Positions 2,434-54,300 of a stretch of DNA of 64,000 nucleotides are shown here, piece after piece. The notes under the pieces were generated by a model that saw nothing but the letters and a program-made list of their open reading frames with translations, made no database searches and had not been told where the DNA came from. The DNA lies in the NCBI GenBank assembly GCA_963798085.1, contig CAWCRS010000007.1, positions 1,504,001-1,568,000 on the forward strand, written 5' to 3'. The number at the start of each line of letters is the position of its first letter. The first letter of the stretch is position 1. The stretch comes from an uncultured Gemmatimonadales bacterium. GTDB lineage: Bacteria > Gemmatimonadota > Gemmatimonadetes > Longimicrobiales > RSA9. The translations under genes were made by a program, and so were the position numbers.

Positions 2434-2891
2434 TGCCCAAGTCCGAGCGCCACACCGCCATTCGCGAACTGATGCAGAAGCATCGCATCTCCAGCCAGGA
2501 GGATCTGCGGGAGCTGCTGGCGCAGCACGGCTTCGACGTGGCCCAGGCCACGCTCTCCCGCGACATCCGGGAGCTGCGCCTGATCAAGGTGCCGGACGCC
2601 GCCGGCGGCCACCACTACACACTGCCGCCCGAGGCATGGGACAGCACACCACCGCTGCGCCGCCTGCTGCCCGCCCTCTTCGTGGGCGCCGAAGGCACGC
2701 GCAATCTCCTCATCCTCAAGACGCTCGCGGGCGGCGCGCAGGCGCTGGCCGAAGCCATCGACTGGGAGGAATGGCCCGAGGTCCTCGGTACGCTTGCCGG
2801 CAATGACACCATCCTCCTGATCCTCCGCCAGGATGACCAGCTTCCCGCAGTGCAGCGCCGTATCGAGGACATTGCCGGCGAAGTAGAATAA
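2433..2891 (+). CDS. argR: Arginine repressor
   Basis: SSQEDL..L..GFDVAQATLSRDIREL, ILKTLAGGAQ, GTLAG(N)DT. Confidence 0.95.
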   Translation: MPKSERHTAIRELMQKHRISSQEDLRELLAQHGFDVAQATLSRDIRELRLIKVPDAAGGHHYTLPPEAWDSTPPLRRLLPALFVGAEGTRNLLILKTLAGGAQALAEAIDWEEWPEVLGTLAGNDTILLILRQDDQLPAVQRRIEDIAGEVE

Positions 2892-2985
2892 ATCTCTCAA
2901 TTCCTTGCTCCTCCCAGCTCCCGCGCCGTGCCCGCCCCTCCGGGCTGGCCGGGGCTGGACCATCCCCTTGCCCTCGCCGGCGATG

Positions 2986-3979: not shown

Positions 3980-4743
3980 GCGCGCGCGTGGTGAAGATCG
4001 GCGGCGCCGCACTGGCGGACGCGGCCTGGCTGGCACAGTTCGGCACGCACCTGGTGCAATCGGGCGAGCCGGTGATCGTGGTGCACGGCGGCGGTCCGGA
4101 CATCAATCGTCTGTCGGAGCGGCTGGCGCTCGAGTACACCTGGGTGGAGGGCCGGCGGGTTACGTCGCCCGAGCTGATGGATGTGGTGTCCATGGTGCTG
4201 ACCGGGCTGGTGAACAAGCGCATCGTGGCGTCGCTGCTGGATGCGGGCGCGGACGCCATCGGCGTTTCCGGCGAGGACGGAGGCCTGCTGACAGCAGTGT
4301 TCGCAGAGGGCGGCGCGCTGGGGCGCGTGGGTCATGTCGATCAGGTGCGCACGGAGCTGCTGCACTGGCTCACGGAGCGGGGCATGGTGCCCGTGGTGTC
4401 GCCGGTGTCGCGCGGGCCCGATGGCCGGGCGCTGAATGTGAATGCCGATGAGGCGGCGGCGGCGCTGGCGGCGGCGCTGGGCGCGTCCGAGCTGCTCTTC
4501 ATCACGGATGTGGCGGGGGTCATGGATGGTGGTGTGCAGCGGCCCGAGCTGAACGCGGCGGAAGCACGCGCCATGATCGATGCGGGAACCGCGACCGGCG
4601 GCATGGCGCTCAAGCTGAACGCCGCGCTCAAGGCGCTGGAAATGGGAGTCACGCGAGTGCGCATCGGGCGCTTTGCCGCGCTGCACGACGCAGCGGCCGG
4701 CACGCGCGTGCGCCACGAGACGGAGGTGCTCACGTGTCTGTGA
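3976..4743 (+). CDS. argB: Acetylglutamate kinase
   Basis: VVKIGG, VHGGG, GRRVT, LNVNADEAA, TDVAGV, GGMALKL; GTG overlaps argC stop. Confidence 0.93.
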   Translation: MSARVVKIGGAALADAAWLAQFGTHLVQSGEPVIVVHGGGPDINRLSERLALEYTWVEGRRVTSPELMDVVSMVLTGLVNKRIVASLLDAGADAIGVSGEDGGLLTAVFAEGGALGRVGHVDQVRTELLHWLTERGMVPVVSPVSRGPDGRALNVNADEAAAALAAALGASELLFITDVAGVMDGGVQRPELNAAEARAMIDAGTATGGMALKLNAALKALEMGVTRVRIGRFAALHDAAAGTRVRHETEVLTCL

Positions 4744-6005: not shown

Positions 6006-7232
<1,227 letters not shown>

Positions 7233-14266: not shown

Positions 14267-14946
14267 TCATCACGATCAATGGCCCGGCGGGCTCCGGCAA
14301 GAGTTCGACCGCGCAAGCGCTGGCGGAGCAGCTGCGCATCCGTCACCTCGATTCGGGCGCGTTCTACCGGGCCCTCACGCTGGCCGCGCTGCTGGCGCGC
14401 ATCGCGCCCGATCAATGGGACGTGTTGCGCGAAGACCAGCTGGAGTCGCTCCGTGTGCGCGGCGAGCCCGGTGCGGCGGGCGCGGCGGGCTATCGCATGT
14501 TCGCCGGCGATGACGATGTCACCGATCGCATCCGCTCGCCCGAGGTGAACGCGTATGTGTCGCGCATGGCGAGGGTGCCGGCTGTCAGGCGCTGGCTGCT
14601 GGGCCGGCTGCGCGCAGCGGGCACGAGCGGCAGCCTGGTGGCCGATGGTCGCGACATGGGTACAGTCGTGTTCCCACAGGCGGATCTGAAGATCTTCCTC
14701 ACGGCCAGCCTCGAGACGCGTGCGCGGCGTCGCCTGCTCGAGCGCGGCGAGGCCGAGCCGGACGCGGACATGCTGGCGGCGGAGACCGAGCGCCTGGCGG
14801 ATCGCGATCGCATTGACTCGGAGCGTGCGGTATCGCCGCTGCGTGCTGCCACCGACGCGGTGCACCTCGACACGTCGGGCATGAGTTTCGACGAGCAGGT
14901 GAGCCGCGTGCTCGAGCTGGTCGGCGACCGGCTGGGCGACGCCTGA
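14263..14946 (+). CDS. cmk: Cytidylate kinase
   Basis: ITI(N)GPAGSGKSS, LDSGAFYRA, DGRDMGTVVFP, RDRIDSER. Confidence 0.95.
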   Translation: MIITINGPAGSGKSSTAQALAEQLRIRHLDSGAFYRALTLAALLARIAPDQWDVLREDQLESLRVRGEPGAAGAAGYRMFAGDDDVTDRIRSPEVNAYVSRMARVPAVRRWLLGRLRAAGTSGSLVADGRDMGTVVFPQADLKIFLTASLETRARRRLLERGEAEPDADMLAAETERLADRDRIDSERAVSPLRAATDAVHLDTSGMSFDEQVSRVLELVGDRLGDA

Positions 14947-18342: not shown

Positions 18343-19884
18343 ATGAGCGTGAGCGAACATCTCCGACGACTGGAGGAGCTCGCGCGTCGCGCCGAGCTGG
18401 GTGGTGGCGAAGACCGGCTGCGCGCGCAGCACGAGCGCGGCAAACTCTCGGCGCGCGAACGCCTCGACATGCTGCTCGATGAGGGCAGCTTCGTCGAGCT
18501 GGATCGCTTCGTCACGAATCGCAGTGCCAATGGCGGCGATCCGATCTTCGGTGATGGCGTGGTCACCGGGTACGGCACGGTACGCGACCGGCTCGTCTAC
18601 GTCTTCAGCCAGGACTTCACGGTATTCGGCGGCTCGCTCTCTGAAGCGCACGCCGCAAAGATCGTGAAGATCATGGACCTGGCGCTGAAGAACGGCGCAC
18701 CCGTGATCGGCCTCAATGATTCGGGTGGCGCACGCATCCAGGAAGGCGTGGTGAGCCTGGGCGGCTACGCCGACATCTTCCTGCGCAACACACTGGCGTC
18801 GGGTGTGATTCCGCAGATCAGCGCGATCCTCGGGCCGTGCGCCGGCGGCGCCGTCTACTCGCCCGCCATCACGGACTTCGTCTACATGGTGCGCGGCACG
18901 AGCTACATGTTCGTGACCGGACCCAATGTCGTGAAGACGGTGACGCACGAGGCCATCGACATGGAAGGCCTGGGCGGCGCCAATGTGCACGGCGGCACAT
19001 CCGGTGTCGCGCACTTCGTGCACGATTCTGAACTCGAGTCCATCGAAGCGATCCGCCGTCTGTTCGACTACATCCCGCAGAACAACCGCGAGGACCCGCC
19101 TCGCCGGGAGACCCGCGATCCCTTCGATCGTGGCGCGGAGGAACTGCTCACCATCGTGCCGGACGAGCCCGCGAAGCCGTACGACATGCACGAGGTCATA
19201 CGGCGGGTGGTGGACGACGGCGACTTCCACGAGGTGCACCGCGACTTCGCCGGCAACATCATCGTCGGCTTTGCACACCTGGGCACGCGCGCCGTGGGCG
19301 TAGTCGCCAATCAGCCGGCCGTGCTCGCGGGTGTCCTCGACATCAACAGCGCGGTCAAGGGCGCGCGCTTCGTGCGCTTCTGCGATGCCTTCAACATCCC
19401 GCTGGTCGTGTTCGAGGATGTGCCGGGATTCCTGCCCGGCGTGGCGCAGGAACACGGCGGCATCATCCGCCACGGCGCCAAGCTGCTGTACGCATTCTGT
19501 GAAGCCACCGTGCCGCGCGTCACGATCATCACACGCAAGGCGTACGGCGGCGCGTATGACGTGATGAACTCGAAGCACATCCGCGGTGACATCAACCTGG
19601 CGTGGCCCACCGCGGAGATCGCGGTGATGGGTCCCAAGGGCGCCGTCGAGATCCTGTATCGCAGGGAGATCGCGGATGCGTCCGACCCGGAGGCCGTGGT
19701 CCGTCGGCGCGAGCTGGAGTACCGCGAGCAGTTCGCTCACCCCTACATCGCCGCGGCGCGCGGCTACGTCGATGACGTGATCGACCCGCGCGAGACCCGC
19801 GCCCGCCTCATCAGCGCCCTCGAAATGCTGCGCAACAAGCGCGACACCAATCCGCCCCGGAAGCATGGTAATATTCCGTTATAG
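18343..19884 (+). CDS. pccB: Acyl-CoA (propionyl-CoA) carboxylase beta subunit
   Basis: [64 protein letters not shown]. Confidence 0.93.
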
Positions 19885-26925: not shown

Positions 26926-27856
26926 ATGAGCCTGCTGGTAGTGGGAAGCGTGGCGCTGGACACCATCGAGACGCCGTTCGGCCGCGCCGCGGATACACTG
27001 GGCGGATCGGCGACGTTCTTCAGTGCGGCGGCCTCGTTCTTCTGCTCCGTGCACCTCGTCGGCGTGGTGGGGGACGATTTTCCGGTACACTAGCTGGAGT
27101 TCCTCGAGCGCCGCGGTGTGGACCTCGGCGGACTGGAGCAGCGCGAAGGCGAGAGCTTTCGCTGGTCCGGCGTCTACAACTACGATCTGAACAGCCGCGA
27201 TACACTGGAGACGAGACTGGGCGTGTTCGCGGATTTCAAGCCACGCATACCGGAAGCCTTCCGCGATGCGCGCTGGATCTTTCTCGGCAACATCGATCCC
27301 GTGCTGCAGCTCGAAGTACTGGAGCAGGTGCGCGCGCCCGAGCTGGTGGCGTGCGACACGATGAACTACTGGATTTCGGGCCGGCGCGATGCGCTGCTGC
27401 GTCTGCTCGCGCACGTCAATGTGCTGATGGTGAATGACAGCGAAGCACGCGAGTTGTCCGGCGAATACAACCTGCTGCGCGCAGCCCGGTGGATCCAGCG
27501 GCACGGCCCGTCAATGGTGGTGGTGAAGAAGGGCGAGCACGGCGCCATCCTGTTTGCCGACGACATGATCTTCTTCGCACCGGGTTTCCCGCTCGAGGAA
27601 ATCTTCGATCCCACGGGTGCGGGCGATGCGTTTGCCGGCGGCTTCGTGGGCTACCTGGCGAGGAACGGCGCGATAACACCGGATCAATCTGCGGCGTGCC
27701 GTCGTCTATGGCTCGACACTCGGTTCCTACGCGGTGGAGCGCTTCGGCGTGGGGCGGCTGATCGATCTGACCGTCGAGGAGATCGATGACCGGGTCATGC
27801 GGTTCCGCGACCTCACCGCGTTCGATCAGCCGGTGGCGATCCGGCCGGGTCTCTGA
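26926..27856 (+). CDS. PfkB-family carbohydrate/nucleoside kinase (internal TAG 27091-27093, frameshift near 27690)
   Basis: MSLLVVGSVALDTIETPFG, LGGSATFF, FLGNIDP, CDTMNYWI, KKGEHGA, DPTGAGDAFAGG. Confidence 0.9.
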
Positions 27857-27863: not shown

Positions 27864-28907
27864 GTGACCGACGGCGTGGAGCTGAGCTACCGCGCGGCCG
27901 GTGTCGATCGCACCGCCGCAGGTCTCGCCAAGCGCCGCATTATCGAGCTGCTCGGAACCACGGCGACGCCGGGCGTCGTGCCCAATCCCGGCGGCTTCGG
28001 CGGCCTCTTCCGCGCACCCGGCGGCGCAGGCCAGCTGCTGGTGGCCAGCGCCAATGGCGTAGGCACCAAACTCAAGATTGCATCGCGTGCGGGTCGCCAC
28101 GAAGGCGTGGGCCACGACATCGTGAATCACTGCGCCAACGACATCCTCGTCGAGGGCGCGCGCCCGCTCTTCTTCCTCGACTACATCGGCATGGGCCGCC
28201 TCGAGCCGGGCACAGTCGAACAGATCGTGGGCGGTGTGGCCGCCGCCTGTCGTGCGGCCGGCTGCGCGCTGCTCGGTGGTGAAACCGCGGAGATGCCGGA
28301 TGTGTACGCCCCCGGTGAGTACGACCTGGCCGGTTTCATCGTCGGCACCGTCCCGGAAGCGTCCCGGCTGGGTGCGCAGCGTGTACACCACGGCAATGCG
28401 CTCGTGGGTCTGGCTGCCGATGGTTTTCATACCAACGGCTATTCGCTTCTGCGCCGTCTGTTCTTCGACACGCTGCGCGTTGATGTGAATCACCGCTTCC
28501 CGGGTATCGACCTGTCGGTGGCGGATGTGCTGCTGCGCCCGCACCGCTCGTACGGGCGCGCACTGCTGCCGCTCATCGAGGACGGCCTGATTCACGCGCT
28601 GGCGCACATTACGGGCGGCGGCATCGAGGAGAACCTGGAGCGCGTGATACCGGAAAACTGTACCGCGCGTGTGGACCTCTCGTCATGGTCCACACCCCAT
28701 GAGTTCCGGGTCGTCGCGGAACGCGGCGGTATTTCGCGGGACGAGATGCTGCGCACCTTCAACATGGGCGCCGGCATGATTGCCGTGGTGCCGCAGGGCG
28801 CAGTGGAAACCGTGATCGAACGGCTGCTGTCCGCGGGTGAGCGGGCATGGCGCATGGGGCGGGTGGAGCGCGGCGAGCAGCGCGTGGTGCTGGCTGACAG
28901 AACCTGA
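27864..28907 (+). CDS. purM: Phosphoribosylformylglycinamidine cyclo-ligase
   Basis: YRAAGVD, GGFGGLF, (N)GVGTKL, PLFFLDY, GGETAEMP, HTNGYSL, AHITGGG, TFNMG. Confidence 0.95.
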   Translation: MTDGVELSYRAAGVDRTAAGLAKRRIIELLGTTATPGVVPNPGGFGGLFRAPGGAGQLLVASANGVGTKLKIASRAGRHEGVGHDIVNHCANDILVEGARPLFFLDYIGMGRLEPGTVEQIVGGVAAACRAAGCALLGGETAEMPDVYAPGEYDLAGFIVGTVPEASRLGAQRVHHGNALVGLAADGFHTNGYSLLRRLFFDTLRVDVNHRFPGIDLSVADVLLRPHRSYGRALLPLIEDGLIHALAHITGGGIEENLERVIPENCTARVDLSSWSTPHEFRVVAERGGISRDEMLRTFNMGAGMIAVVPQGAVETVIERLLSAGERAWRMGRVERGEQRVVLADRT

Positions 28908-29930: not shown

Positions 29931-31016
29931 GTGGACGAAGACCAGACCTTCATGGAGCGCGCGCTGCAGCTCGCCGAGGCGGGCTGGGGTCGCGTGCATC
30001 CCAACCCGCTGGTAGGCGCCGTCCTCGTCCGCGACGGCGAGGTTGTTGGTGAGGGCTGGCACGCCGAGTACGGGGGGCCCCACGCGGAAGTAGTGGCACT
30101 GCACGCCGCCCGCGAACAAGCGCGCGGCGCCACCCTCTACGTCACCCTCGAACCCTGCCGCCACCAGGGCAAGACGCCGCCCTGTACCACCGCCATCATT
30201 GCAGCCGGCATCCAGCGCGTGGTCTTCGGTGCCGCCGATCCCAGCCTCGAGGCGGGCGGCGGCGCCGGCGTACTCGAACGCGCCGGCGTGGAGGTGCGAG
30301 GCGGCGTGCTGGCCACCGCCTCGCGCCGCCTCAATGCCGCGTTCCACCATGCACTGGAACGCGACCGGCCATTCGTGGCTCTGAAGCTGGCAATGTCGCT
30401 CGACGCTCGGCTCAGTCGTGAAGCCGGCCGGCGCACTACCGTCACCGGAGAAGGGGCGCAGGCCGAGGTGCACAGACTGCGCGCCGGTTACGATGCGATC
30501 CTTATCGGACGCGGCACGGCGGCGGCCGATGACCCGGAACTGACCGTGCGCGGGCCGCTCGCGCCACGCAGGCCGCCGGTGCGCATCATCTTCAATGCCG
30601 CGGCCGGACTATGCTCGGATTCGCGACTCGCGCGCAGCGCAGCGCAGGCACCGGTCTGGGTGGTGGCCGCGGCTGACGCAGACCCGGAAGAGCTTCGTCG
30701 CCTGCAGCAGTCCGGTGTGCGCACCCTGTGCACGAAACGGGCAGAGCATGGCGTGGATGTGAACGAAGCCATCAGCCTGCTCTGGCGGGAGGGTGTGCGC
30801 TCGATACTCTGCGAAGGCGGCGGACGGTTGGCGGCGTCGCTGCTCGAGGCCGATGCGGTGCAGCGCATCTACCTGTTCGTGGCACCCGTATTCTTCGGCG
30901 AGGCCGGCACACCGGCGTTCCCGCTGCACGGCCCCGGCGGCGGCTGGGTCATCACCGGAACGCGCGCCATCGGCAGCGACGTGCTCTTGACACTCGAACG
31001 TTTCGTCGCAGGATAA
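29931..31016 (+). CDS. ribD: Riboflavin biosynthesis deaminase/reductase
   Basis: PNPLVGAV, HAE, TLEPCRH.GKTPPC, LKLAMSLD, DDPELTVR, CEGGG. Confidence 0.95.
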   Translation: MDEDQTFMERALQLAEAGWGRVHPNPLVGAVLVRDGEVVGEGWHAEYGGPHAEVVALHAAREQARGATLYVTLEPCRHQGKTPPCTTAIIAAGIQRVVFGAADPSLEAGGGAGVLERAGVEVRGGVLATASRRLNAAFHHALERDRPFVALKLAMSLDARLSREAGRRTTVTGEGAQAEVHRLRAGYDAILIGRGTAAADDPELTVRGPLAPRRPPVRIIFNAAAGLCSDSRLARSAAQAPVWVVAAADADPEELRRLQQSGVRTLCTKRAEHGVDVNEAISLLWREGVRSILCEGGGRLAASLLEADAVQRIYLFVAPVFFGEAGTPAFPLHGPGGGWVITGTRAIGSDVLLTLERFVAG

Positions 31017-31020: not shown

Positions 31021-31629
31021 GTGTTCAGCGGAATCGTCGAGGAAACCGGAACCGTGCGCGACGTGACCCGGGTCGAGAACGGCATGCGTCTGCGCATCGC
31101 GGCCCGGATCGCGCTCGATGAGCTGGTACCGGGTGCATCCATCGCCATTAATGGTGTGTGCCAGACCGTGGTCACCCGGTCGGACGCGGACTTCCAGGTC
31201 GAGGCTATCGCCACGACACTGGGTCGTACCACACTGGGTGCGCTCGCGGCCGGCAATGCGGTGAACCTGGAGCGGGCACTCGCCTATGGCGAACGCGTGG
31301 GTGGCCACCTCGTGCAGGGCCACGTCAATGGCGTGGGCACGGTGACCGCTGTGCAGCGCGAGGGCGAGCACGTGCTGCTCGATGTGCGCATGCCGGCCGA
31401 CGTCGCGGACGTTACCGTGCTGCACGGCTCCATCGCGATCGATGGCGTCAGCCTCACGGTCAATGCACTGCCTGCTGCGGACTGCGTGCAGGTGGCGCTG
31501 ATTCCGTACACGTGGGAGCACACGACTCTCTGCCGGCTGCGGCCGGGCAGCCGGGTGAACCTGGAAGGCGACATGATGGGCCGCTTCGTGACGCACTGGC
31601 TGAAGCGGCAGCGCGGCGAGGGGGTATGA
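31021..31629 (+). CDS. ribE: Riboflavin synthase
   Basis: [50 protein letters not shown]. Confidence 0.95.
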
Positions 31630-32937: not shown

Positions 32938-33420
32938 GTGGGGGAACTCCGCGGCAACCCGTCCGGCGCCGGACGGCGCTTCGCCATCATCGTCAGCCGC
33001 TTCAACGACGTGGTCACCAGCCGCCTGCTGACCGGGGCGCGCGCCTGTCTTGCCCAACACGGTGTTATGGAAGGCGACATCAATGTGATCTCCGTGCCCG
33101 GCGCGTTCGAGCTGCCGCTCGCCGCCCGGTTCGCGGCTGACCGCGCTGTCTACGCCGCTGTTATCGCGCTGGGTTGCGTGATCGAAGGGGAGACGCGCCA
33201 CTTCGACTACGTCGCCGGTCCGGCGGCCGACGGCCTGGCGCGCGTGGCGCTGGATGCCCGGCTGCCCGTGGCGCTGGGCGTACTGACCACGACCGATCTG
33301 GAACAGGCACTGGCACGCGCGGGCGGCAGGCTCGGCAACAAGGGCTGGGATGCCGCCATGGCCGCGCTCGAACTGGCCGATCTCGCCGTGCAGCTGGGAA
33401 CGGACCGTGCGCAGCCGTAG
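32938..33420 (+). CDS. ribH: 6,7-dimethyl-8-ribityllumazine synthase
   Basis: [40 protein letters not shown]. Confidence 0.95.
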
Positions 33421-33844
33421 CCGCGCACGCGGGTGGGCACTGCAGATCCTCTACGCATGGGAAATGCGCGGGCCCGAGCGGCCGCTGCCCGAGGTGCTCG
33501 CCGATTTCATGACGGATCGACTGATCGGCGAAGGCAGCCGCGACTACCTGTTCCGCCTGATCCTTGCCGTTGCCGAGCATCGCGCCGACATCGATCGCAC
33601 AGTGCAGGAATGCCTGACCAACTGGCGGCTCGAGCGCCTCTCCACCATTGATCGCGCCGTGCTGCGTATTGGCGCGGCTGAAATGCTGTTCCTGCACGAT
33701 GTGCCGCCGCGCGTTTCCATACAGGAAGCTGTCCTGCTGGCCGAGAAGTACAGCACCGCCGAGAGTCCGCGGTTCGTCAATGGCGTGCTGGACGCCCTGA
33801 TGCGGCGGGCGCGCGACCCGGCCGTGCGAGGAGAGGACCGCTGA
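33407..33844 (+). CDS. nusB: Transcription antitermination factor NusB
   Basis: [48 protein letters not shown]. Confidence 0.93.
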   Translation: MRSRSRARGWALQILYAWEMRGPERPLPEVLADFMTDRLIGEGSRDYLFRLILAVAEHRADIDRTVQECLTNWRLERLSTIDRAVLRIGAAEMLFLHDVPPRVSIQEAVLLAEKYSTAESPRFVNGVLDALMRRARDPAVRGEDR

Positions 33845-35025
33845 ACATCGCTGTCATCAACTGGCAGGATCGCGAGAATCCGCAGGCCGGTGGCGCGGAG
33901 GTTCACCTGCATGAGATCTTCGGCCGGCTGGCAGCGCGCGGCCACCGCGTCACGCTGCTGGTGTCAGGCTGGAAGGGTGCACCCGCCAGCGTGCAGCTCA
34001 ATGGCATGGACGTACACCGCGCCGGGGGGCGCCACACGTTCCCGCTCGCCGCGCCGGGTGCATGGCGGAAACTGCGTCGGCGCGACTTCGACATCGTCGT
34101 CGAAGACCTCAACAAGATCCCCCTCTTCTCGCCGTGGTGGGCAGGCGCGCCGGTCGTACTCCTCGTCCATCACCTGTTCGGCCGCACGGCCTTTCAGGAA
34201 GCGGGACTCCTGGTGGCCGGCACGACCTGGCTCGCAGAGCAGCCGCTGGCCGTCATGTATCGCGGTGTGCCCGTGGAAGCCGTCTCGCAGAGCACAGCTG
34301 ACGATCTCGTGCGACGCGGTTTCAATGCCGCGCGCATCACGGTAATTCCAAATGGCGTGGCGCTCGACGCGTTCACACCGGATCCCGCCGCCCGCTTCGC
34401 CGCGCCGACGCTCCTTTACGTGGGCCGCCTGAAGCGCTACAAGGGAATAGACCTGATCCTCCAGGCTGTGGCCCGCCTGGTAGCGCAGGGCGTGCCAGTG
34501 CGCGCGATCATTGCCGGGAAAGGCGACTATGCGATGGAGCTGGAACGGTTGCGCGCGCAGCTGGGACTGCAGGACGTCGTGGAAATGACCGGCTTCGTCA
34601 CCGAGGCCGAGAAGCTGCGCCTGCTGCGGGGTACATGGGTGCATGTGCTGACCTCGCCCAAGGAGGGCTGGGGTATCACCAACCTGGAAGCCGCAGCATG
34701 CGGAACGCCCACCGTGGCGAGCGATTCCCCCGGTTTGCGAGATTCGGTCCTGCACGAGGAAACGGGCCTGCTCGTGCCGCACGGCGACGTTGCCGCGCTG
34801 GCGACCGCGCTGCAACGCATGCTGACGGATGACGTGACCCGGAAGCGCCTGGGCGAAGGCGCGCACGCTTTCGCTCAGCGATTCCACTGGGAACGGTCGG
34901 CAGAGCTGACCGAGGCACACCTTGCCGCCGTGCTCGAGGGCGCAGGCGAGGGCCAGCACCCTGGCGATTCGGCCTGGATGCCGCGTCGTGAGCAACCGGA
35001 CCAACCTTCGCACCGGAGGCAATGA
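33841..35025 (+). CDS. Glycosyltransferase family 4
   Basis: NWQDRENPQAGGAEVH, YVGRLKRYKG, EGWGITNLEA, SDSPGLRDSV; the frame begins at CTG 33841 after a strong RBS. Confidence 0.9.
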   Translation: MNIAVINWQDRENPQAGGAEVHLHEIFGRLAARGHRVTLLVSGWKGAPASVQLNGMDVHRAGGRHTFPLAAPGAWRKLRRRDFDIVVEDLNKIPLFSPWWAGAPVVLLVHHLFGRTAFQEAGLLVAGTTWLAEQPLAVMYRGVPVEAVSQSTADDLVRRGFNAARITVIPNGVALDAFTPDPAARFAAPTLLYVGRLKRYKGIDLILQAVARLVAQGVPVRAIIAGKGDYAMELERLRAQLGLQDVVEMTGFVTEAEKLRLLRGTWVHVLTSPKEGWGITNLEAAACGTPTVASDSPGLRDSVLHEETGLLVPHGDVAALATALQRMLTDDVTRKRLGEGAHAFAQRFHWERSAELTEAHLAAVLEGAGEGQHPGDSAWMPRREQPDQPSHRRQ

Positions 35026-35352: not shown

Positions 35353-36312
35353 GTGGCCACGCTGACGGTGGAAGATCTGTTCCGGGTGAAGGGCAATGTG
35401 CTGTCACTCGAGCTGCTGACGGAGGAATGCGACCTGCGTCGTCCGATTCGCGACGCGACGATATCGAATCCCGGCCTCGTGCTGGCCGGCTTCCGCGATC
35501 GTTTCCCCGGCGGCCGCATCCAGGTTCTCGGCGAAACCGAGGTCTACTACCTCCGTTCCCTCAATGAGGCGCGCCGCCGCCACGTGATCGAGGAATTCTT
35601 CGCGCTGCCCATGCCCGCCGTCGTCGTGACCAAGGGACAGGATCTGCCGGACGACTTCCTGGCCGGCGGGCGACAGCACGGCGTGCCGATTTTCCGCTCG
35701 CAGCTCAAGACGGGCGATTTCTACCGTCGCGTTCAGCCCTACCTCGAAGAACAGTTCGCGCCCACGACCACCATGCACGGCTCCCTCGCGGATGTGTACG
35801 GTGTGGGTCTGCTGTTCGTGGGACGGAGCGGCATTGGCAAGAGCGAGTGCGTGCTGGACCTCGTCGAGCGCGGGCATCGCCTGGTGGCGGACAATGTGGT
35901 GATCATTTCCCGCCGCGGCAACGACATCCTGATCGGCCGCGGCCACGAGCTGCAACGGCATCACATGGAGATCCGCGGCATCGGCATCATCGACATCCGC
36001 GCGCTTTTCGGCATCCGCGCGATTCGACAGCAGAAGCGAATCGAGGTCGTCGTCCAGCTGGTGGACTGGGACGAGCGCGCGCACTACGATCGCACCGGGC
36101 TCGAACTGGAAACGGTCGACATTCTCAATGTCGGTGTACCCAAGGTGATGATCCCGCTGAACGCGGGGAAGAACATCACGGTGATCTCCGAGGTCATTGC
36201 GATGAACCACCTGCTGAAATACTCGGGCGTGCATTCAGCGCGTCGCTTCAACGAGAGTCTCCAGGAGGCGATGAAGCCAATGCGGCAGTACCTGGAGGAG
36301 GACTATGAGTGA
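35353..36312 (+). CDS. hprK: HPr kinase/phosphorylase
   Basis: PGLVLAGF, RIQVLGETE, HGSLADVYGVG, GRSGIGKSE, GHRLVAD, MEIRGIGII. Confidence 0.96.
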   Translation: MATLTVEDLFRVKGNVLSLELLTEECDLRRPIRDATISNPGLVLAGFRDRFPGGRIQVLGETEVYYLRSLNEARRRHVIEEFFALPMPAVVVTKGQDLPDDFLAGGRQHGVPIFRSQLKTGDFYRRVQPYLEEQFAPTTTMHGSLADVYGVGLLFVGRSGIGKSECVLDLVERGHRLVADNVVIISRRGNDILIGRGHELQRHHMEIRGIGIIDIRALFGIRAIRQQKRIEVVVQLVDWDERAHYDRTGLELETVDILNVGVPKVMIPLNAGKNITVISEVIAMNHLLKYSGVHSARRFNESLQEAMKPMRQYLEEDYE

Positions 36313-38883: not shown

Positions 38884-40674
38884 GTGGGGATCATCCGCGA
38901 CGGGATGGCCGCATCACCGGGGATCGTTGTGGGCCCGGCGTACGTGCTGCGCTGGGACCTCCCACGCGTGCCGCACGCCAGCGTGATGGAGCCCGAGGTG
39001 GAAGCGGAGATCGAGCGCTTCGCCGAGGCTCGTCGCTGGGCCAGTGCGCGCATTGAGGACATACAGCGCCAGACCGCCGAACGGCTGGGTCCGATCGAGG
39101 CACGCATCTTCGAGCCGCAGCTGCTCATGCTCGAAGACTCCGACATGGTGAACCGCACGGTCGCATACATCCGCGAGAATCGTTTCGCCGCGGCGCGCGC
39201 GTTCGAGCTGTGCATGCTCGAGATCCAGGCGGAATGGACGCGCAGCGGCCACCCCATGATCATGGATCGCCTCAACGATCTCACGGATGTCGAACAGCGC
39301 GTGCTGCGCCATCTGCTGGGCATGGCCGATCCCGATTTCGCGCTGGCCGATACCGGCGATGGCGTGGTGCTCGTGGCCCGCGATCTGACACCCACCATCA
39401 CCGTGCAGCTCGACAAACAGCGCATTCTGGGCATCGCGACGGATGGCGGAACGCGCACGTCGCATTCCGCGATCCTGGCGCGCTCGCTCAACATCCCGTC
39501 CGTCGTGGGCCTGGGCGACTTCTCCACGCTCGTGCAGAGCGGGCAGGAAGTGGCGCTCGATGGCCGCTCCGGCCGCGTCGTGATGCTGCCCACCGAAGAA
39601 GAGAAGAAGCAGTACCGCGACTGGGATGTGCGGGTGCGTGAATGGGAGCATGAGCTGGGACGCCTGTCCCATGAGGAGGCGGTTACGCCGGATCACCAAC
39701 CGATCGTGCTGCGCGCGAACATCGATCTGCCCGGCGAGGCTGAGCACGCACGAACCCACGGTGCACGAGGCATTGGTCTGTTCCGCACTGAGTTCCTGGT
39801 CGTGGGGCGCAATACGCCGCCTGAAGAGGAAGAGCAGTACCAGAGCTATCGCCGCGTCGCCGAAGCGTTCCCGCACGATGCCGTGTACATCCGCACATTC
39901 GACCTGGGCGGCGACAAATTCCCGCACTTCCTGCACATGCCGCCGGAAGAGAATCCGTTTCTTGGCTGGCGCGCCATCCGCGTGTGCCTGGATGAGCCGG
40001 AACTGTTCCGCCCGCACCTGCGCGCACTGCTGCGCGCCACGGCGCACGGCAATGTGCGCATCATGCTGCCCATGATCAACGACATCGCGGAAATCGAGCA
40101 GACACGGCATCTGCTCGATGAAGAAGCCGAGAAGCTGAATCGCGAGGGTGTCGCGTTCAACTCCGGGTACAAGCTCGGCATCATGATCGAGACGCCGGCC
40201 GCCGCGATGACGGCGCACGAGCTGGCGCGCTACTCGGATTTCTTCTCGGTGGGCACCAACGATCTCGTGCAGTACACACTGGCCGTCGACCGGGGCAATG
40301 CGCGGCTTGCCCCGCGCAGCTCGCCGTTCCACCCGGCCGTGGTGCGCCTGCTGGAACGCACCGCCAATGCGGGGCGCGAGGCAGGCATCGAGGTGTGCAT
40401 TTGCGGTGAGATGGCAGGCAATCCGCTCGCCATCTTCCTCTTCATTGGACTCGGGATCAACGCGCTGAGTGTGGGCCCCGCAACTCTGGCGGAGGCCAAG
40501 AAGGTCATCCGCTCGGTACCGGCCGCCGCGGCGCGCGCGGCCATGCCCGGCGTGCTGGCGGCCGGCACAACCGGCGAGGTGGTGACACGACTGCGCGAGG
40601 GACTGCGTGAATGGCTCGACCTCTCGCTCTTTTCCGATCGCTGGAATCTGTCACCCGAGGGTCGTGCCAACTGA
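38884..40674 (+). CDS. ptsI: PEP-protein phosphotransferase (Enzyme I)
   Basis: GGTRTSHSAILAR, GIGLFRTEF, RTFDLGGDK, ENPFLGWRAIR, MIETP, SVGTNDLVQY, CGEMA. Confidence 0.96.
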   Translation: MGIIRDGMAASPGIVVGPAYVLRWDLPRVPHASVMEPEVEAEIERFAEARRWASARIEDIQRQTAERLGPIEARIFEPQLLMLEDSDMVNRTVAYIRENRFAAARAFELCMLEIQAEWTRSGHPMIMDRLNDLTDVEQRVLRHLLGMADPDFALADTGDGVVLVARDLTPTITVQLDKQRILGIATDGGTRTSHSAILARSLNIPSVVGLGDFSTLVQSGQEVALDGRSGRVVMLPTEEEKKQYRDWDVRVREWEHELGRLSHEEAVTPDHQPIVLRANIDLPGEAEHARTHGARGIGLFRTEFLVVGRNTPPEEEEQYQSYRRVAEAFPHDAVYIRTFDLGGDKFPHFLHMPPEENPFLGWRAIRVCLDEPELFRPHLRALLRATAHGNVRIMLPMINDIAEIEQTRHLLDEEAEKLNREGVAFNSGYKLGIMIETPAAAMTAHELARYSDFFSVGTNDLVQYTLAVDRGNARLAPRSSPFHPAVVRLLERTANAGREAGIEVCICGEMAGNPLAIFLFIGLGINALSVGPATLAEAKKVIRSVPAAAARAAMPGVLAAGTTGEVVTRLREGLREWLDLSLFSDRWNLSPEGRAN

Positions 40675-41407: not shown

Positions 41408-41408
41408 A

Positions 41409-42814: not shown

Positions 42815-44682
42815 TCCTGGGCACTGCCGGACACATCGATCACGGCAAGACCGCACTCGTGCAGGCGCTCACCGGCATTGACACCGACCGGCTGCCGGAA
42901 GAGAAGCGTCGCGGCATCACCATCGACCTGGGCTTCGCCAACCTGCGCATCGAGGACCGCTGCGAGATCGGCATCGTCGACGTGCCCGGCCACGAAGGCT
43001 TCATCCGCAACATGCTGGCAGGCGCCACCGGGATTGACCTCGCCCTGCTCGTGGTGGCAGCCAATGAGGGCGTCATGCCGCAGACACGCGAACACCTCGC
43101 CATCCTCGAGCTGCTCGGCGTGCGCACGATGATCGTTGCCCTGACCAAGTGCGACCTCGTCGATGCGGAGTGGCTCGAGCTGGCGCGCGATGATGTGCGC
43201 ACGCTGCTGGCAGACACACCATTCGCGACGAGTGCCATCATCGCTGTGTCCGCTCGTACTCGCGCAGGACTCGACGAGCTGCTGCAGCACCTGGATCGGG
43301 CGGCGACGACGCTTGCCGGGCGCAGCGACGCGGATCTCTTCCGCCTGCCCATTGACCGGGTCTTTACTGTGCGTGGCACGGGCACAGTGGTCACGGGCAC
43401 CGTATGGAGCGGCGCAGCCGAGCGGGACCGTGTGCTGCGCATCCTGCCGGGCAATGCAACAGCCCGCGTGCGCGGCATCCAGGCTCACGGCGAGGAGCGA
43501 ACGCGGGCGACCGCAGGACAGCGCGCCGCGCTGGCACTGGCGGGACTCAACCGCGCGGACCTGAAACGCGGCGATGCGCTTGTGGAAGGCAATGGCTGGG
43601 AGGCGGCTTCCATTCTGACGGTGAGCCTTCGTGGGCTCGCCGGCGCACTGCCGCTGCGGACGGGTCAACGCGTGCGCTTCCATCTTGGAACAGCCGAGGT
43701 AATGGGTCGGTTCGTGCCCTTTGAACCGGGCAAACTGGAGCCGGGGCAGGAGGCTCTCGCGCAGCTGCGACTCGAAGAACCAGTGGTGGCCCGCGCCGGC
43801 GATCACTTCGTGCTGCGTTCCTGGTCGCCCGTCACCACGATTGCCGGCGGGCGCGTTCTCGAGCCGGCCGCGCGGAAGCGCAAACGGCCGGATGCGGAAG
43901 TGCGCAACCGCCTGGCGTCAATCCTCGGCAAAGGCCGCAGCCAGTCGGTTGAAGCGGCCGTGTGGCTGGCCGGCAGCAGCGGCACTCCCGTCGATCGTCT
44001 GCCCGTGATCACGCCGTGGTCCGCAGCGGACCTGGCGCTGCTCGACGAGGCCGGAGACGGGCGAGTGCGTCGAGCCGGAAACGTCGTGTGGCATGAGGAC
44101 GTCATCGCGGAGGCGCGCGAACGGCTGATCCTTCGACTCACGGAGCACCACAGCAGGCAGCCGCTGAGCCCTGGATTGCCTCGCGAGGAGCTGCGTCAGG
44201 CGATCCATGCCGCCGCGCCGGCCTTCGCCGATTTCGTGATCGCGAGCCTGCTCGGCGAGGGGCGTCTCGAAAGCGATGGCTCGACACTCCGATTGGCCGG
44301 ATTTGCTGCCGTCCTCTCGGACGCGCAGGAGGACGCGGCCCGCAGGATTGTCGACTTCGTGGACGCCGCCGGCTTTTCGGCGCCGAGCGCCGTCGATCTG
44401 CCCGCCGTGCTGTCTGGCCGCGCTGACCTCGAAGACCTGCTGCACTACCTGCAGCGCCTGGGCCGCCTGACGGCCTTGCCCGACCGGCGTTTCCTGACAC
44501 CGCACAGGCTGCTCGAAGCCGCAGCTCTGGCGCGCCGCGAGTTGGCCCGTCGGGACGGGCTGAGTCCAGCGGATTTTCGGGACCTCTACGGTATTTCGCG
44601 GAAGTACCTGATCCCGCTGCTCGAGCACTTCGACCGCACAGGGGTGACCGCGCGCTCCGGGGAGCAGCGTCGCCTAACGTGA
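42802..44682 (+). CDS. selB: Selenocysteine-specific elongation factor
   Basis: GTAGHIDHGKT, DRLPEEKRRGITIDLG, DVPGHE, PQTREH, PIDRVF, C-terminal SRKYLIPLLEHFD SECIS-binding winged helix. Confidence 0.96.
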   Translation: MRQLILGTAGHIDHGKTALVQALTGIDTDRLPEEKRRGITIDLGFANLRIEDRCEIGIVDVPGHEGFIRNMLAGATGIDLALLVVAANEGVMPQTREHLAILELLGVRTMIVALTKCDLVDAEWLELARDDVRTLLADTPFATSAIIAVSARTRAGLDELLQHLDRAATTLAGRSDADLFRLPIDRVFTVRGTGTVVTGTVWSGAAERDRVLRILPGNATARVRGIQAHGEERTRATAGQRAALALAGLNRADLKRGDALVEGNGWEAASILTVSLRGLAGALPLRTGQRVRFHLGTAEVMGRFVPFEPGKLEPGQEALAQLRLEEPVVARAGDHFVLRSWSPVTTIAGGRVLEPAARKRKRPDAEVRNRLASILGKGRSQSVEAAVWLAGSSGTPVDRLPVITPWSAADLALLDEAGDGRVRRAGNVVWHEDVIAEARERLILRLTEHHSRQPLSPGLPREELRQAIHAAAPAFADFVIASLLGEGRLESDGSTLRLAGFAAVLSDAQEDAARRIVDFVDAAGFSAPSAVDLPAVLSGRADLEDLLHYLQRLGRLTALPDRRFLTPHRLLEAAALARRELARRDGLSPADFRDLYGISRKYLIPLLEHFDRTGVTARSGEQRRLT

Positions 44683-44805: not shown

Positions 44806-44834
44806 TTGACTCGATTTGTCTGAAGCGATATCAT
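44806..44834 (+). promoter_or_regulatory. sigma70-type promoter
   Basis: TTGACT-17 nt-TATCAT in an AT-richer intergenic region. Confidence 0.7.
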
Positions 44835-44934
44835 GGGCGTACCGGAGGTATGTCGGGCTGTCCAAGAGGTCCTAAACAACGGAGGGTTATCGCGAACTTT
44901 GCTACAGCACAGCTGATTCTGTGCGGAGGTGACC

Positions 44935-45372: not shown

Positions 45373-45384
45373 GAAAGAGTTAGG

Positions 45385-45422
45385 AAGCGCCGGGTTCCAG
45401 GGAGGGACCCGGCGCTTTTTTT
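45385..45422 (+). terminator. Rho-independent terminator (possibly bidirectional)
   Basis: AAGCGCCGGGTTCC-loop-GGGACCCGGCGCTT then TTTTT, between convergent genes. Confidence 0.88.
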
Positions 45423-45459
45423 CATCCCCGTGAATCCCCGCGCGTCGAGCGATCGCGAG

Positions 45460-45912: not shown

Positions 45913-45961
45913 CTTGTTTCCTCCCACGCACACCCGACCTCGCATGTATACGAGGCGGCGC

Positions 45962-45990
45962 AAGATAAGAGTGGTCTTCGACAGTGTCAA
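45962..45990 (-). promoter_or_regulatory. sigma70 promoter of the PtsN-like gene
   Basis: Minus strand TTGACA (45990-45985)-17 nt-TATCTT (45967-45962). Confidence 0.7.
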
Positions 45991-46041
45991 AGTGTCCCGT
46001 ACGCGATTGATCGACTGGAGCCTCGCGGTTAGCTTCGGCGC

Positions 46042-48343: not shown

Positions 48344-51300
48344 GTGCGCGTGAGTCACCTGACCAACGCGTTTCATCAGGAGAGTTGGCTGTTGCGCCTG
48401 CACAGGTCCTCCTCGCCCGCTCCGCCCGCTGATCCGCTGCTCCCGAAGACTCCGCCTGCGAACGTCGAAGCTCCGCCGGTCGGCCCGCTTGGCGGTGAAT
48501 TGCTGGGCGTCGATCAGCTGGGTGAGCGTGCCCGCGTGCTCGCCCGCGCACAAGTGCTCGCGACCGGTCGTCCGCGGCAGCGACATGCGCCTCTGCTGGC
48601 GCGCCTGGATCAGACCCGAGGCATTCTCGCCGCGGCCGAGGTTCAGCTCGCTGATGCCGCGGCGCGGGATGTCAATGTCGGCCCGGCAGGCGCCTGGCTG
48701 CTCGACAACTATCACATCGTGCAGGAACACATGCGCGAAGTGCGGCAGAGCCTGCCGCGCGGCTACTACAACGAGCTGCCGCAGCTGGCGTCGGGGCGCC
48801 TGGCCGGCTATCCGCGCGTGTACGACCTGGCGATCACGCTGATCTCGCACACGGAAGCGCGCATCGATCTCGACAACGTGGACCTGTTCATCGGCGCGTT
48901 TCAGTCGGAGCAGGCACTTTCGATCGGTGAGCTGTGGGCGATTCCGGCAATGATGCGGCTCGGGCTCATCGAAAGCGTGCGTCGCATGACGCTGCGCACA
49001 GTCGAGCGGCTCGTGCAGATCGAGGATGCCGATCGGCGCGGCGCACACATCCTGGACGCCACCGAGCACCACGGACTCGAGCTGGCCGCCGCATTGCGCG
49101 AGTTCATGAGCGATCCGCCGCGGCTCACCGCTACGTTCGTCTCCCGGTTCCTCTACGCATTGCGCGAAAGCCGCGCCGCGCACCCTTCGCTGATCACGCT
49201 CGAGCAGTGGATAGGCGACGAAGGACTGGGCGCCGAGCCCGCCAGCATCCAGTCGACGAGTCGTGTCGCCCTGACGCACATCATGATGGCGAACAGCATC
49301 ACGAGTCTGCGCGCCATCGGTCGTCTCGACTGGAAGGTCTTCGTGGAGCGGCAGAGCAGACTCGACGCTGTGCTGCGCAAGGACCCGGCACAGTACTACA
49401 CCCGCATGACGTTCGGAACGCGCGATCACTATCGCCACGTGGTCGAACGCCTGGCCCGGCGCACGCGACTGCCGGAGACAGTCGTTGCGAGCCATGCGGT
49501 CGCACTCGCGTCACGCGCTGAAATGCGGGACCACACGACACACGTGGGCTTCTTCCTCATCGATGACGGGCTGCCGGAGCTGGAACGGGCGTGTGGCTTC
49601 CACGCCACCGGCAGCGAGGCACTGCACCGGTTCGTGCTGCACTACCCGGGCATCGCCTTCAGCAGCGCCATCGCCGTTGTGACCGCCGCCATCCTGGTTG
49701 CACTCTGGAGCGTCGCCGGGCCGATGCCCATCGCGGCACAGATCGCAGCGACCATCCTGCTGCTCCTGCCCGCGCTCAATGTTGCGATCCATCTCGTGCA
49801 TCAGTTGTTCTCCGTGTTTCTGCCACCCCGGCTGCTGCCCAAACTCGATCTGCGCGCGCCGCGCGGGATTCCTTCCGAGTTCCGGACCGCAGTCGTGATT
49901 CCCACGCTGTTCGCCGACGTCGCCGCAGTTGCGGAAGCACTGGAAATCATCGAAGCGCAATTCCTGGCCAACCGCGATGCGCATCTGCATTTCGCTGTGC
50001 TCAGCGACTTCACGGACGCCAGCAGTGCGACGCGTGCGGACAATGAAGAGATCCTGAACGCCGCTGTGCTCGGCATCACCGAGCTGAACGCACGCTATGC
50101 CCCGGACACGGCGGACGCCTTCTTTCTCTTTCACCGGCCGCGGCGCTGGAATGCCAGTCAGGGCGAGTGGATGGGGTGGGAACGCAAGCGCGGCAAGCTC
50201 GCCGAATTCAATCACTACCTGCGCGGCGGTGCACGCGACGCGTTTTCCACGGTTGTGGGCAGGACTGCGGCGCTGGAACAGGTCCGTTATGTGATCACTC
50301 TCGATGCCGACACGGTCCTGCCGCCGGATGCCGCACCGCTGCTGGTGGGAGCCCTGGCGCATCCGCTCAATCGCGCTGTGTACGACGCTGTTCGCGCCCG
50401 CGTCGTCCGCGGCTTCGGTATTCTCCAGCCTCGCGTCGGCGTGTCACTGCCGAGCGCGTACCGCTCGCGTTTCGCCATCATCAATTCCGGACATCCCGGT
50501 GTGGATCCCTATACGACCGCAGTCTCCGACGTATATCAGGACCTGTTCGGGGAGGGCAGCTTCACCGGAAAAGGGATTTACGATGTCAATGCGTTCGAGC
50601 GGGCAACGTATGGACGCTTCCCGGAGAACAAGCTGCTGTCGCACGATCTGATCGAGGGCAGTTACGCGCGGGCCGGGCTGGTGACGGACATCATTGTGTA
50701 CGACGATTATCCTACGCACTACCTGACGTACACCCGCCGCAAGCACCGCTGGATCCGTGGCGACTGGCAGCTGCTGGATTGGCTGACACCAACAGTGGCC
50801 GGGCCCGACGGTCCGGAGCCCAACCGCCTTTCCCTGCTGTCCCGCTGGAAGATTCTCGACAATCTGCGCCGCAGCACGGTCGAGATTGCACAGCTCGCGC
50901 TACTGGTTGGCGGCTGGACCCTGCTGCCGGCGTCGGCGCTGGCCTTCACGGCGCTCGCGCTGGGCGCGATTGCGGCTCCCTGGCTGGCTGCGCTGCTGCT
51001 CGCTTCATTGCGACCGCCGCTCGACAAGTCCTGGGCCGCCTACTATTCGGCGGTCGGGCGGGACGCACGCACCAGTGCGCAACAGGTTCTCCTGACGCTG
51101 GCGTTTCTGCCGCACCAGGCCTGCATCTCGTTCGACGCCATCGCGCGGACGCTCTGGCGCATCTTCGTCAGCCGGCGGCACCTGCTCGAGTGGCAGACCG
51201 CATCGCGTACCGAGCTTCTGCTCGCAGGGCCGCGCTCACCGTGGAAGGCAATGGCACCCGGGCTGGTGTCCGCACTGACCGCGGCGGGCCTGGTGGCGGC

Positions 51301-54300
51301 GACGGCAATGCTCAGGAGTTCCGCCGCGCTTGCACCCGTGATCGCTTCAGCCCCGTTCATTGTGCTTTGGCTGGCCGCGCCGGTGCTGGCGGGCGCGCTC
51401 AGCAGGGCACCGGCGCGACAGACCCGCGAGCTGGCGGCGCATGCACGAGCCCGGGCACTGCGTTATGCACTGCTGCACTGGCGCTTCTTCGATCGGTTCG
51501 TGGGGCGGAATACGAACGGGCTGGTACCGGACAACTACCAGGAAGACCCCGTACCCGCCACGGCGCTCCGTACATCGCCGACCAACATCGGGTTGCAGCT
51601 CCTGTCCACCGTCAGTGCCTGCGACCTCGGCTTCATTACAGTCGAGGAAATGACGGGGCGCATCGAGCTGGTCTTTCGTGCGCTCGAACGGATGGATCGC
51701 TTTCGCGGCCATTTCTACAACTGGTATGACCTCGAGAATCTGCGCGTGCTCGATCCCGGTTACATCTCGACCGTGGACAGCGGCAACCTCGCGGGTCACC
51801 TGATCGCGCTGCGCCAGGCGTTGCTCGCCATTCGACAGCAGCCTGCGGCGTCGCGCAACTGGCGTGCGCTCGATACCGGCCTCGAGCTGGCCTGCGAACG
51901 CCTGCAGGAGCTCCCCACGTCGGGCATCACCGCTGCACCGCATGCGTGGCAGGCGGTGCGCACGGCGCGCGCCCATGTGCAGCGCGCCCGCATGGCGCTG
52001 GCAGACGCCGCACGATCGACCTCGATCGCCTCATCCCTCGCCAGCATCGCCGCCATGCTGCACGCCGCGCAGGACGCCCTCAGCGCGACCACGGAATGGC
52101 CCGCCCTCGAGGAGCGCGCGCGCGAATGGATCAGCTGGAGCATGGAACGCGTCACCGCGCACACGAACGGGCCGCCTGCGGTTGCTGCCCAGCTCGAGGC
52201 ACTGGCGGACCGCGCCTATGCCTGCGCGATCGAAATGGACTTTGCGTTCCTGTCTGATGCCAGCCGCAAGCTGTTTGCCATTGGGTACCACCCCGACACG
52301 CATGCGCGTGACGCTTCGTACTACGATCTGCTCGCGTCCGAAGCCCGCCTGGCCAGCTTCATCGCCATTGCCAAACACAATGTTCCTGTCGAGCACTGGT
52401 TCCATCTGGGTCGGACGCTGACGCACGCCGCCGGCGCGACCGCGCTGGTTTCATGGAGCGGCAGCATGTTCGAGTATCTGATGCCGGCACTGGTGATGCG
52501 ATTCTGGCCGTTGACGCTGCTGGATCAGACGTACCGTGGCGCGGTGCACCGGCAGATCGCGTATGGCCGCAGGCGGGGTGTGCCCTGGGGCACGAGCGAG
52601 AGCGCGTACGCCGTGCGCGACCGGCATGCGACGTATCAGTATCGTGCTTTTGGTGTGCCCGACCTGGGCCTCAAGCATGGACTCGACCGTGAACTGGTGA
52701 TCGCACCCTACGCTTCCGTGCTGGCACTCATGGTCGAGCCGGGGCGGGCCATTGCCAATCTGAGCACGCTCGAGAAGCTGGGGGCGCTGGGCCCGTACGG
52801 CTTCCGCGATGCACTCGATTTCACGCGCGCACCCGCCGGCGCCCGCTACGTGATCGTCCGCACCTTCATGGCGCATCATATCGGCATGAGCCTCGTTTCC
52901 CTGACTAACACGCTGCTTCCAGAGCTCTGGCCCGGCCGATTCCATGCAGACCCAATGGTGCGCTCCGCTGAGCTGCTGCTGTATGAGCGTATTCCGCGCC
53001 GACTCGTGCTGCAGGGAGCGACGACTTCCGCCTCGACCGAAGTCATGCCGGAACCCGGCGCGGACAGTCCCAGTGTGCGCGAATTCACGTCGCCCGACAC
53101 GGTACAGCCGCACATCGCACTGCTGGGCCAGCTTCCGTATACCATCATGGTCAGCCACTGCGGTGGCGGGTACAGCCGGTTCGAAGACCTTGCGGTTACA
53201 CGCTGGCGCTCCAATGCGACTACCGACAACACGGGACAGTTCTGCTACATCAAGGATCTGCGTCGGGGACACGTCTGGTCCGCGGCGCATCAGCCGGTCT
53301 GCGTGAAGGCCGACGAGTATCGAGCCCTGTTTGCGACCGATCGCGTCACCTTCCACCGCGTCAATGCGGACATCGAGACCCGGACGGAGATCGCCATCGT
53401 ACCGGAGGACTCGGCTGAAGTGCGCCGCGTCACCGTCACCAACCATGGCCATGAGTCACGCGAGGTGGAGCTGACCAGCTACGGTGAAGTGGTACTGGCT
53501 CCACCCGCCGCCGAGCGCGTGCACCCTGCCTTCGCCAACCTGTTCGTGAGCACCGAATTCCACGAGTGGTGCAGCGCGATCACGGCCACCCGCCGGCCAC
53601 GCTCGGCAGAGGAGCGCTCGCTGGTCTGCGTCCACGTGGTTGCCACTGGCAACGAGCGTCTTGGCAGTGTGACATGCGAGACGGATCGTGCGCGATTTCT
53701 CGGGCGCGGGCGAACCACGCGTGACCCGCTCGCGCTCGAGGTCGATGGCGCGCTCTCCGGCACGACGGGTGCCGTGCTCGATCCCATCTTCGCTCTGCGC
53801 ACGCGCGTTCGCGTGGGTCCGGGAAAGTCTGCCGCCGTCGCCTTCACAACGCTGGTGGCGGTGACGCGCAAGCGCGCGTTCGAGCTGGCTGACCGCTACC
53901 ACACACTGCACGCGGCCCAGCGCGCGCTGGACCTGACCTGGACCGCGACGCAGGTCGAACTGCGTGAACTCAACATATCACCCGCCAATGCAACCATATT
54001 CCAGGAGCTGGCCGGTCACCTGCTCTACACGGGCGAGGGGCTCGGCCCGGCGGCGCGCGATCGTGCGGACAGTCCGGGTACCCAGCCGCTGCTCTGGTCG
54101 ACAGGTATTTCAGGGGACCTGCCCATCCTGCTGGCGTCCGTCGACTCGCCGGACGCAATACCGACGCTGCGGCAGATCTTCTCGGCGCACCATTACTGGC
54201 GGCGGCGTGGACTGCACATCAATGTGGTCGTGCTCAACAATCAGGCGACGACGTATCTGCATGAACTCGACGACCTCATCATGGCCACACTCGCCGCGTC

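Follow-up and report, generated by a model that had tools for sequence, protein, structure and literature searches.

The stretch of DNA analysed here, 64,000 nucleotides in length and called the window throughout (contig CAWCRS010000007.1 of assembly GCA_963798085.1, positions 1,504,001 to 1,568,000), comes from an uncultured Gemmatimonadales bacterium whose genome, G000, is the representative of its species and is 90% complete; its homologues within the family are labelled Longimicrobiales (Gemmatimonadota). The window carries genes for ArgR, ArgG, Cmk, PurM, RibD, RibE, RibH, HprK, SelB and Cgs, ten names that are borne out by Pfam, together with a PfkB-like gene that fell outside the Pfam scan. 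An earlier note, made from the letters alone, had observed that conserved aspartate (Asp) residues read as asparagine (Asn) in these unrelated proteins, each time within the word CAATG. All 14 of the positions that it listed are C-AAT-G with the AAT in frame, and all are on the sense strand because nearly all of the window genes lie on the + strand. The conversion is partial, as had been stated, with intact CGATG words standing at other conserved Asp residues (Table 1).

Table 1. CAATG and CGATG words in the window and candidate methyltransferase genes of G000. Positions are those of the window unless a contig is named; X1 is an independent sequencing run described in the text.
Feature	Position	Strand	Reading	Asp in relatives	X1
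ArgR	2801..2805	+	likely miscalled CGATG	2/2	
Intact CGATG at conserved Asp (partial conversion)	4446..4450	+			
ArgG	7133..7137	+	likely miscalled CGATG	3/3	
Cmk	14277..14281	+	likely miscalled CGATG	5/5	
Intact CGATG at conserved Asp (partial conversion)	14643..14647	+			
Further site, not listed before	18981..18985	+	likely miscall	5/5	
PfkB-like gene (putative name)	27417..27421	+	miscalled CGATG	6/6	G at 27418
Further site, not listed before	27512..27516	+	silent miscall, TCA for TCG (Ser)		G at 27513
PurM	28052..28056	+	likely miscalled CGATG	5/5	
PurM	28394..28398	+	miscalled CGATG	5/6	G at 28395
RibD	30593..30597	+	miscalled CGATG	6/6 (larger set 9/9)	G at 30594
RibE	31254..31258	+	listed before, without conservation support	1/6 (larger set 2/9)	
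RibE GHVDG	31326..31330	+	likely miscalled CGATG	6/6 (larger set 9/9)	
RibH	33081..33085	+	probable miscall	4/6 (larger set 4/7)	
Control	33778..33782	+	real CAATG (true Asn)	Asn 6/6	same as window
Further site, not listed before	33999..34003	+	miscall	5/5	G at 34000
HprK	35562..35566	+	further miscall at variable position		G at 35563
HprK LVADD	35892..35896	+	likely miscalled CGATG	6/6	
HprK	36126..36130	+	further miscall at variable position		G at 36127
Further site, not listed before	40050..40054	+	likely miscall	6/6	
SelB	43062..43066	+	miscalled CGATG	6/6	G at 43063
SelB	43590..43594	+	further miscall at variable position		G at 43591
Cgs	48673..54308	+	ten in-frame CAATG (codons 48674, 49778, 50042, 50588, 52379, 53213, 53363, 53987, 54221, 54305)	homologues mostly Asp	
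D12-class adenine methyltransferase (PF02086)	G000:C5:177724-178785		candidate writer		
Eco57I-like (type IIG-like) methyltransferase, 1,122 aa	G000:C1:262758-266123		candidate		
Type III Mod (PF01555)	C8:331400-333298		candidate		

The Asp-to-Asn signal in the window is genuine and far beyond chance. Conservation was scored first against stretches from six relatives and then with 15, and at 13 of the 14 listed sites homologues mostly have Asp; RibE site 31254 lacks support because only one of the six relatives has Asp there. The rank of clearest case proved too generous for Cgs site 50587, where the 119 aligned homologues have Asp 71 times, Glu 34 times and Ala 9 times. At four of the ten CAATG codons of Cgs the homologues have Asp in 115/115, 116/116, 116/116 and 111/111 cases, the last of these figures also being that for site 54220, and the eight codons beyond the two listed before give a similar picture. 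Among 4,126 columns that are invariant in at least four relatives G000 differs at 184, and of the 11 Asp-to-Asn changes within these, ten are in CAATG. The tabulation by nucleotide context that had been suggested as a check gives the enrichment directly: when 15 relatives are used, Asn stands in place of a conserved Asp at 12 of 38 C-[G/A]AT-G sites, as against 1 of 78 in the CGACG/CAACG, CGATC and GGATG contexts (Fisher p=4e-6).

One question that such a pattern raises is whether the change belongs to the cell or to the file. In 12 of 12 contigs of G000, CAATG makes up a larger part of all C[G/A]ATG words on the deposited + strand than on the - strand. This holds for genes of either direction, and the bias is found both in contigs with mostly + genes and in those with mostly - genes. 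In the Asp/Asn class the share is 2579/6663 (0.387) on + versus 1749/6627 (0.264) on -, and in the silent Ile class it is 3656/9098 (0.402) versus 2599/9013 (0.288); four control words have no consistent strand bias across the 12 contigs. When strands were scanned without a preferred word, CAATG came out at the top of the 5-mers (z 18.6), as did CGATG>CAATG among 768 G>A pairs (z 23). Within conserved stretches where a relative has Asp, G000 has Asn at 33 of 164 sites in + strand genes and at 7 of 172 in - strand genes, against a background of 1-8%, and in the rpoB region, whose genes lie on -, none of 23 Asp sites reads as Asn. The excess comes to about 2,400 sites, equivalent to some 15% of + strand CGATG being miscalled, which is a lower bound if the - strand also carries a few errors; an early figure of about 10,000 errors, obtained by setting G000 beside its relatives, was abandoned because the - strand proved nearly error-free. 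The orientation in which a contig is deposited has no counterpart in the cell, and the bias would therefore arise in the building of the consensus.

A number of further measures inform to a lesser degree. Pairs of redundant repeats lend weak support, with 28 of 271 differences at the motif and one copy differing at 5 of 6 sites. Correlation along the genome is positive on the same strand and negative on the opposite one, which partly reflects the global strand offset. No excess of premature TGA stops arising from CAT-CGA was seen, since 26 versus 29 genes end CAT-TGA, and a k-mer comparison with relatives was uninformative, being swamped by compositional differences.

Independent DNA evidence comes from a public run, X1, whose short contigs are 97-100% identical to the window and were compared with it over 26001-46000; two other runs, X2 and X3, gave no long pieces near-identical to the window. 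X1 may stem from a sister strain, or from the very sample behind the assembly. Over this interval there are 18 differences, nine of which are the A of a CAATG read as G, and these include the previously listed sites 27417, 28394, 30593 and 43062. Eight of the nine turn Asn into Asp and the remaining one is silent, whereas the other nine differences comprise seven silent changes, one Leu>Pro and one outside any called gene, such that 8 of 9 motif differences are non-silent versus 1 of 8 others (Fisher p=0.003). In eight X1 pieces displayed in full (2,712 bases) five of six CAATG words differ; the exception, at 33779, is a true Asn that is shared by 6/6 relatives. None of the two CATTG or the 17 CGATG/CATCG words differs. 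Motif changes thus escape purifying selection, with 8/9 non-silent versus 1/8 and with invariant Asp residues and the 16S gene among those hit.

The 16S gene is a case in point. The sole copy in G000 (C7:1582909-1584465, L055, + strand), about 15 kb past the end of the window, reads GTAAACAATG, in contrast to the copies of 11 other genomes, the unpublished G020 included, 12 of 12 of which read GTAAACGATG and hence have CGATG. It is likely that the deposited 16S marker gene of G000 carries a miscall.

The affected word is exactly CGATG. A broader palindromic motif, CGWCG, modified at its fourth base on both strands as in the Hpy99I type, had been proposed, but CGACG is untouched, with a strand-bias estimate of the miscall rate of -0.006 versus 0.148 for CGATG, and at conserved Asp positions 22 CGACG words are intact versus one CAACG. 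X1, moreover, has one A>G change and no other at each of the nine motif sites, leaving the fourth-base modification unsupported. From the sparing of CGACG and this single change it follows that the word is the asymmetric CGATG/CATCG and not CGWCG. Eleven of its 12 one-letter variants, among them GGATG (0.001), are within 0.010 of zero; the one exception, CGTTG, takes a negative value since it yields CATTG, the mirror word of CAATG. A longer or bipartite motif was also rejected, as the error requires no particular base between -14 and +14 and the bias persists whichever base stands at any flanking position between -6 and +6. The miscall rate depends only on the two adjacent bases, over a range of 6-30%, which is as would be expected of a pore-context effect. 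As regards modification of G itself, G000 gave no match to DpdA and a single one to TGT, which leaves a G-modification system without support, and no member of the PAPS-reductase family (DndC/SspD) was matched, though in a genome that is 90% complete neither absence is proven.

Two readings would place the change in the cell. In the first the changes are real and recent mutations, for instance from deamination at a methylated C in CATCG, and it draws on a real, strand-symmetric CATTG excess at silent Ile sites and on the chance that X1 is a different strain. However, real mutation cannot follow the strand of a file in 12 of 12 contigs, and the changes strike invariant residues and 16S without purifying selection while the other differences of X1 are mostly silent, so this account is very improbable. 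In the second the DNA truly has A and A-to-I editing of the mRNA restores the Asp codons, but the DNA contigs of X1 already read G, the same change is found antisense as silent ATC>ATT and in 16S rDNA, and genes on the - strand are nearly spared; its probability is negligible. The earlier note had likewise placed both of these behind motif-specific miscalls, which fit best with the G in X1 and with errors that follow the + strand of the file. The Asp-to-Asn changes are thus read, with a probability of about 0.9, as an assembly error at CGATG, likely one in which methylation confuses long reads and likely through a D12-class enzyme considered below.

The bias extends beyond G000. In few-contig relatives, of which 0.13-0.54 Mb was sampled each, the same + strand bias appears in five genomes from four genera, with odds ratios of 2.62 (1.92-3.59) in G013, 2.17 in G087, 1.90 in G065, 2.50 in G051 and 2.46 in G102, all intervals being above 1. 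In G013 the CGATG word is again first, of 760 in the strand scan, and Asp-to-Asn changes number four in 415 columns, all in CAATG. A search of these five genomes for a C5 methylase found none, a further point against real deamination at CATCG.

What, then, might mark the word? Methyltransferase genes, which had been suggested as a target for searching, are plentiful in G000: a type III Mod, a fragmented type I cluster, a Dcm-like C5 methylase with Vsr, a D12-class orphan and an Eco57I-like gene, and apart from two short hits a local screen of the genome turned up no other DNA methylase candidate. The D12-class protein scores 94.2 bits against PF02086 (cut-off 22), and its motifs DPF-G-AS and DPPY are invariant in 15 sequences. 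Its gene is present in 61 of 72 family genomes and in 0 of 157 and 0 of 71 genomes of two sister families, tallies that include a few unpublished genomes and kin that are not independent. At six loci inspected by their called genes, without a Pfam scan, the neighbours are small shared genes, none nuclease-like. It is not Dam as such, scoring 25.8 against the NCBIfam model TIGR00571 where the cut-off is 114.85 bits. All five relatives with bias carry it, and one genome separates the candidates: G036, with an odds ratio of 1.00 (0.58-1.73), keeps the Eco57I-like gene, yet no D12 orthologue was found in it, its one PF02086 hit not matching the D12 protein. Carriers with bias are therefore 5 of 7 few-contig relatives and non-carriers 0 of 1, which is co-occurrence only.

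The same artefact could come from a mark written by the Eco57I-like enzyme, alone or with the D12 enzyme acting on the other strand. All five positive relatives have its gene, as do 61 of the 72 family genomes overall but 0 of 129 and 0 of 20 sister-family genomes, in tallies that likewise take in a few unpublished genomes and related ones, and its motifs DPACGSG and NPPW are intact. Counting against it, G036 has the gene (residues 51-1120 matched) and still has a bias of 1.00 and a CATTG ratio of x0.84, and enzymes of this kind usually recognise sites of 6-7 bp and methylate an adenine close to the 3' end. A mark made in G000 by the type III Mod is another variant; this protein is intact and is encoded beside a 992-aa gene that resembles a Res partner by position and start (putative), and its class typically marks one strand of an asymmetric word of 5-6 bp. 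Nevertheless, the Mod query had no match in four of the five relatives that share the bias, and in the fifth the match is 40-51% identical and in pieces, making Mod a highly improbable source. Given the one separating genome and two carriers in which no bias is seen, the D12 enzyme is slightly favoured as the writer, and the Eco57I-like enzyme, its main rival, is an unlikely one.

Methylation is itself very probably the cause of the errors. In the proposed sequence of events a modified base in CGATG/CATCG, taken to be m6A rather than m4C or m5C, would shift the pore signal, such that reads from one strand would show an A in place of the G (or a T in place of the paired C). This would split the pile-up, and the polisher would settle wrongly more often when CGATG is on its forward strand. 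The mark would probably be written by the family-wide orphan D12 enzyme.

Several points weigh against this account. The case for methylation, the modified base and the nanopore platform is built from assembled sequence, in which the file-strand bias is an indirect sign of strand-split calls. The X1 evidence consists of single contigs at a depth of 2.4-5.9 from one sample of unrecorded platform. The D12 carriers G046 (1.01, 0.58-1.77) and G010 (0.85, 0.38-1.90), both of unrecorded platform, show no bias, and the assignment to D12 rests on a single negative genome, G036, whose platform is not on record; its frameshifts, 4 in 16,244 aligned residues, only hint at unpolished long reads, and the positive G087 has none. 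The Eco57I-like gene is equally widespread, at 61 of 72 family genomes. Finally, no solved structure in a PDB sequence search matched the D12 protein, and its target is therefore unpredictable from homology.

Separate from the miscalls, the word itself appears to have been depleted. On the strand with few errors the silent Ile codons of G000 favour CATTG over CATCG by x2.59 beyond additive context (z 14). Many-contig D12 carriers have a similar excess of x2.52 (1.30-4.88), in contrast to G036 at x0.84 (0.41-1.73), and G005 has a ratio of x4.19 with an interval, 0.41-43, too wide to inform. Miscalls cannot explain this excess because a rate of about 18% would be needed, versus 4% at conserved Asp, and slow mutational loss or avoidance of a marked CGATG/CATCG word is the likely reason.

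The D12 enzyme recalls Dam and CcrM in being a single clade-conserved gene with no restriction partner seen adjoining; it shares Pfam PF02086 with Dam but differs in that the inferred target is asymmetric and not a palindrome. Two other D12-class enzymes, M.FokI (GGATG/CATCC) and M.NlaIII (CATG), have ATG-containing targets that differ from CGATG by one letter. They belong, unlike the D12 orphan, to restriction-modification systems. A tentative proposal, put at slightly under even odds, is that the family keeps a housekeeping methyltransferase of the Dam/CcrM kind with an asymmetric CGATG target new to the literature searched, that its mark has slowly eroded the word, and that it can be read from assemblies through the strand bias of the polisher.

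The artefact is of a known kind, what is new being the inferred motif, its family-wide spread, the candidate orphan enzyme and the reference-free strand test. The Hammerhead paper (PMC11610603) describes G2A and C2T as the dominant errors of R10.4.1 assemblies, which vanish on amplified DNA. In another report (bioRxiv 10.64898/2026.01.14.699587) errors cluster at methylated motifs, the m6A word CATCTC giving eight false calls, all C2T; CATCG also begins with CATC. Pentanucleotide motifs (GCAGC, GCTGG) are among the reported cases, and pentanucleotide cases appear in PMC10687267 (Modpolish). The pattern in G000 resembles these in that G>A/C>T changes fall on a single short motif, are partial and linked to strand, and survive polishing. 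It differs in that CGATG is absent from Table 1 of PMC11610603 and from the passages available of these papers, and in that the motif was recovered from a deposited assembly alone, by + strand bias. The CAT-m5C-GATG methyltransferases (bioRxiv 10.1101/2024.07.15.603628) have an 8-bp site that contains both CATCG and CGATG, but theirs is an m5C mark in a palindrome, unlike the five-letter word found here with any flanks in relatives that have no C5 methylase match. No report of CGATG methylation in this phylum, or of the motif or enzyme, was met in the literature searched, which took in few subscription journals and not REBASE.

The consequences are practical. About 2,400 substitutions in G000 are false, some of them at invariant Asp residues and one in the 16S gene, and five relatives share the bias, so that claims of catalytic loss or recoding at CAATG or CATTG in these six genomes are suspect. 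Counting a word on the + versus the - strand is a cheap, reference-free test for such errors, and the result here suggests that a methylation mark, with a named candidate enzyme, runs through a whole family of a phylum that has been little studied.

Other features of the assembly may be recorded. Past about 55,420 (window 55400-57100) several frameshifts, likely long-read indels, interrupt Cgs, and the called protein has 2,380 aa versus about 2,900 in homologues. RpoB (G000:C5:436380-438306) is split over two frames near 437,955, as RpoB of G013 is split too; the frameshifts of RpoB and Cgs fit an unpolished long-read assembly. The type I restriction-modification cluster (G000:C3:931400-940400; L032, L033) is in many short pieces, through either real decay or assembly indels. 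The Dcm-like C5 methylase (G000:C11:1487-3320; L034) lies on an 8.6-kb contig, with a helix-turn-helix-like N-terminal part and Vsr after it, and a CCWGG-type strand bias did not surface in general scans of G000. At the Eco57I-like locus (G000:C1:262758-269677; L053) the methyltransferase gene is followed by a 215-aa gene and then a 920-aa helicase-like gene. In terms of word usage, GAGCTC is the most under-represented 6-mer in G000, at 0.33 of expected, and words containing GGA/TCC are scarcer than in relatives.

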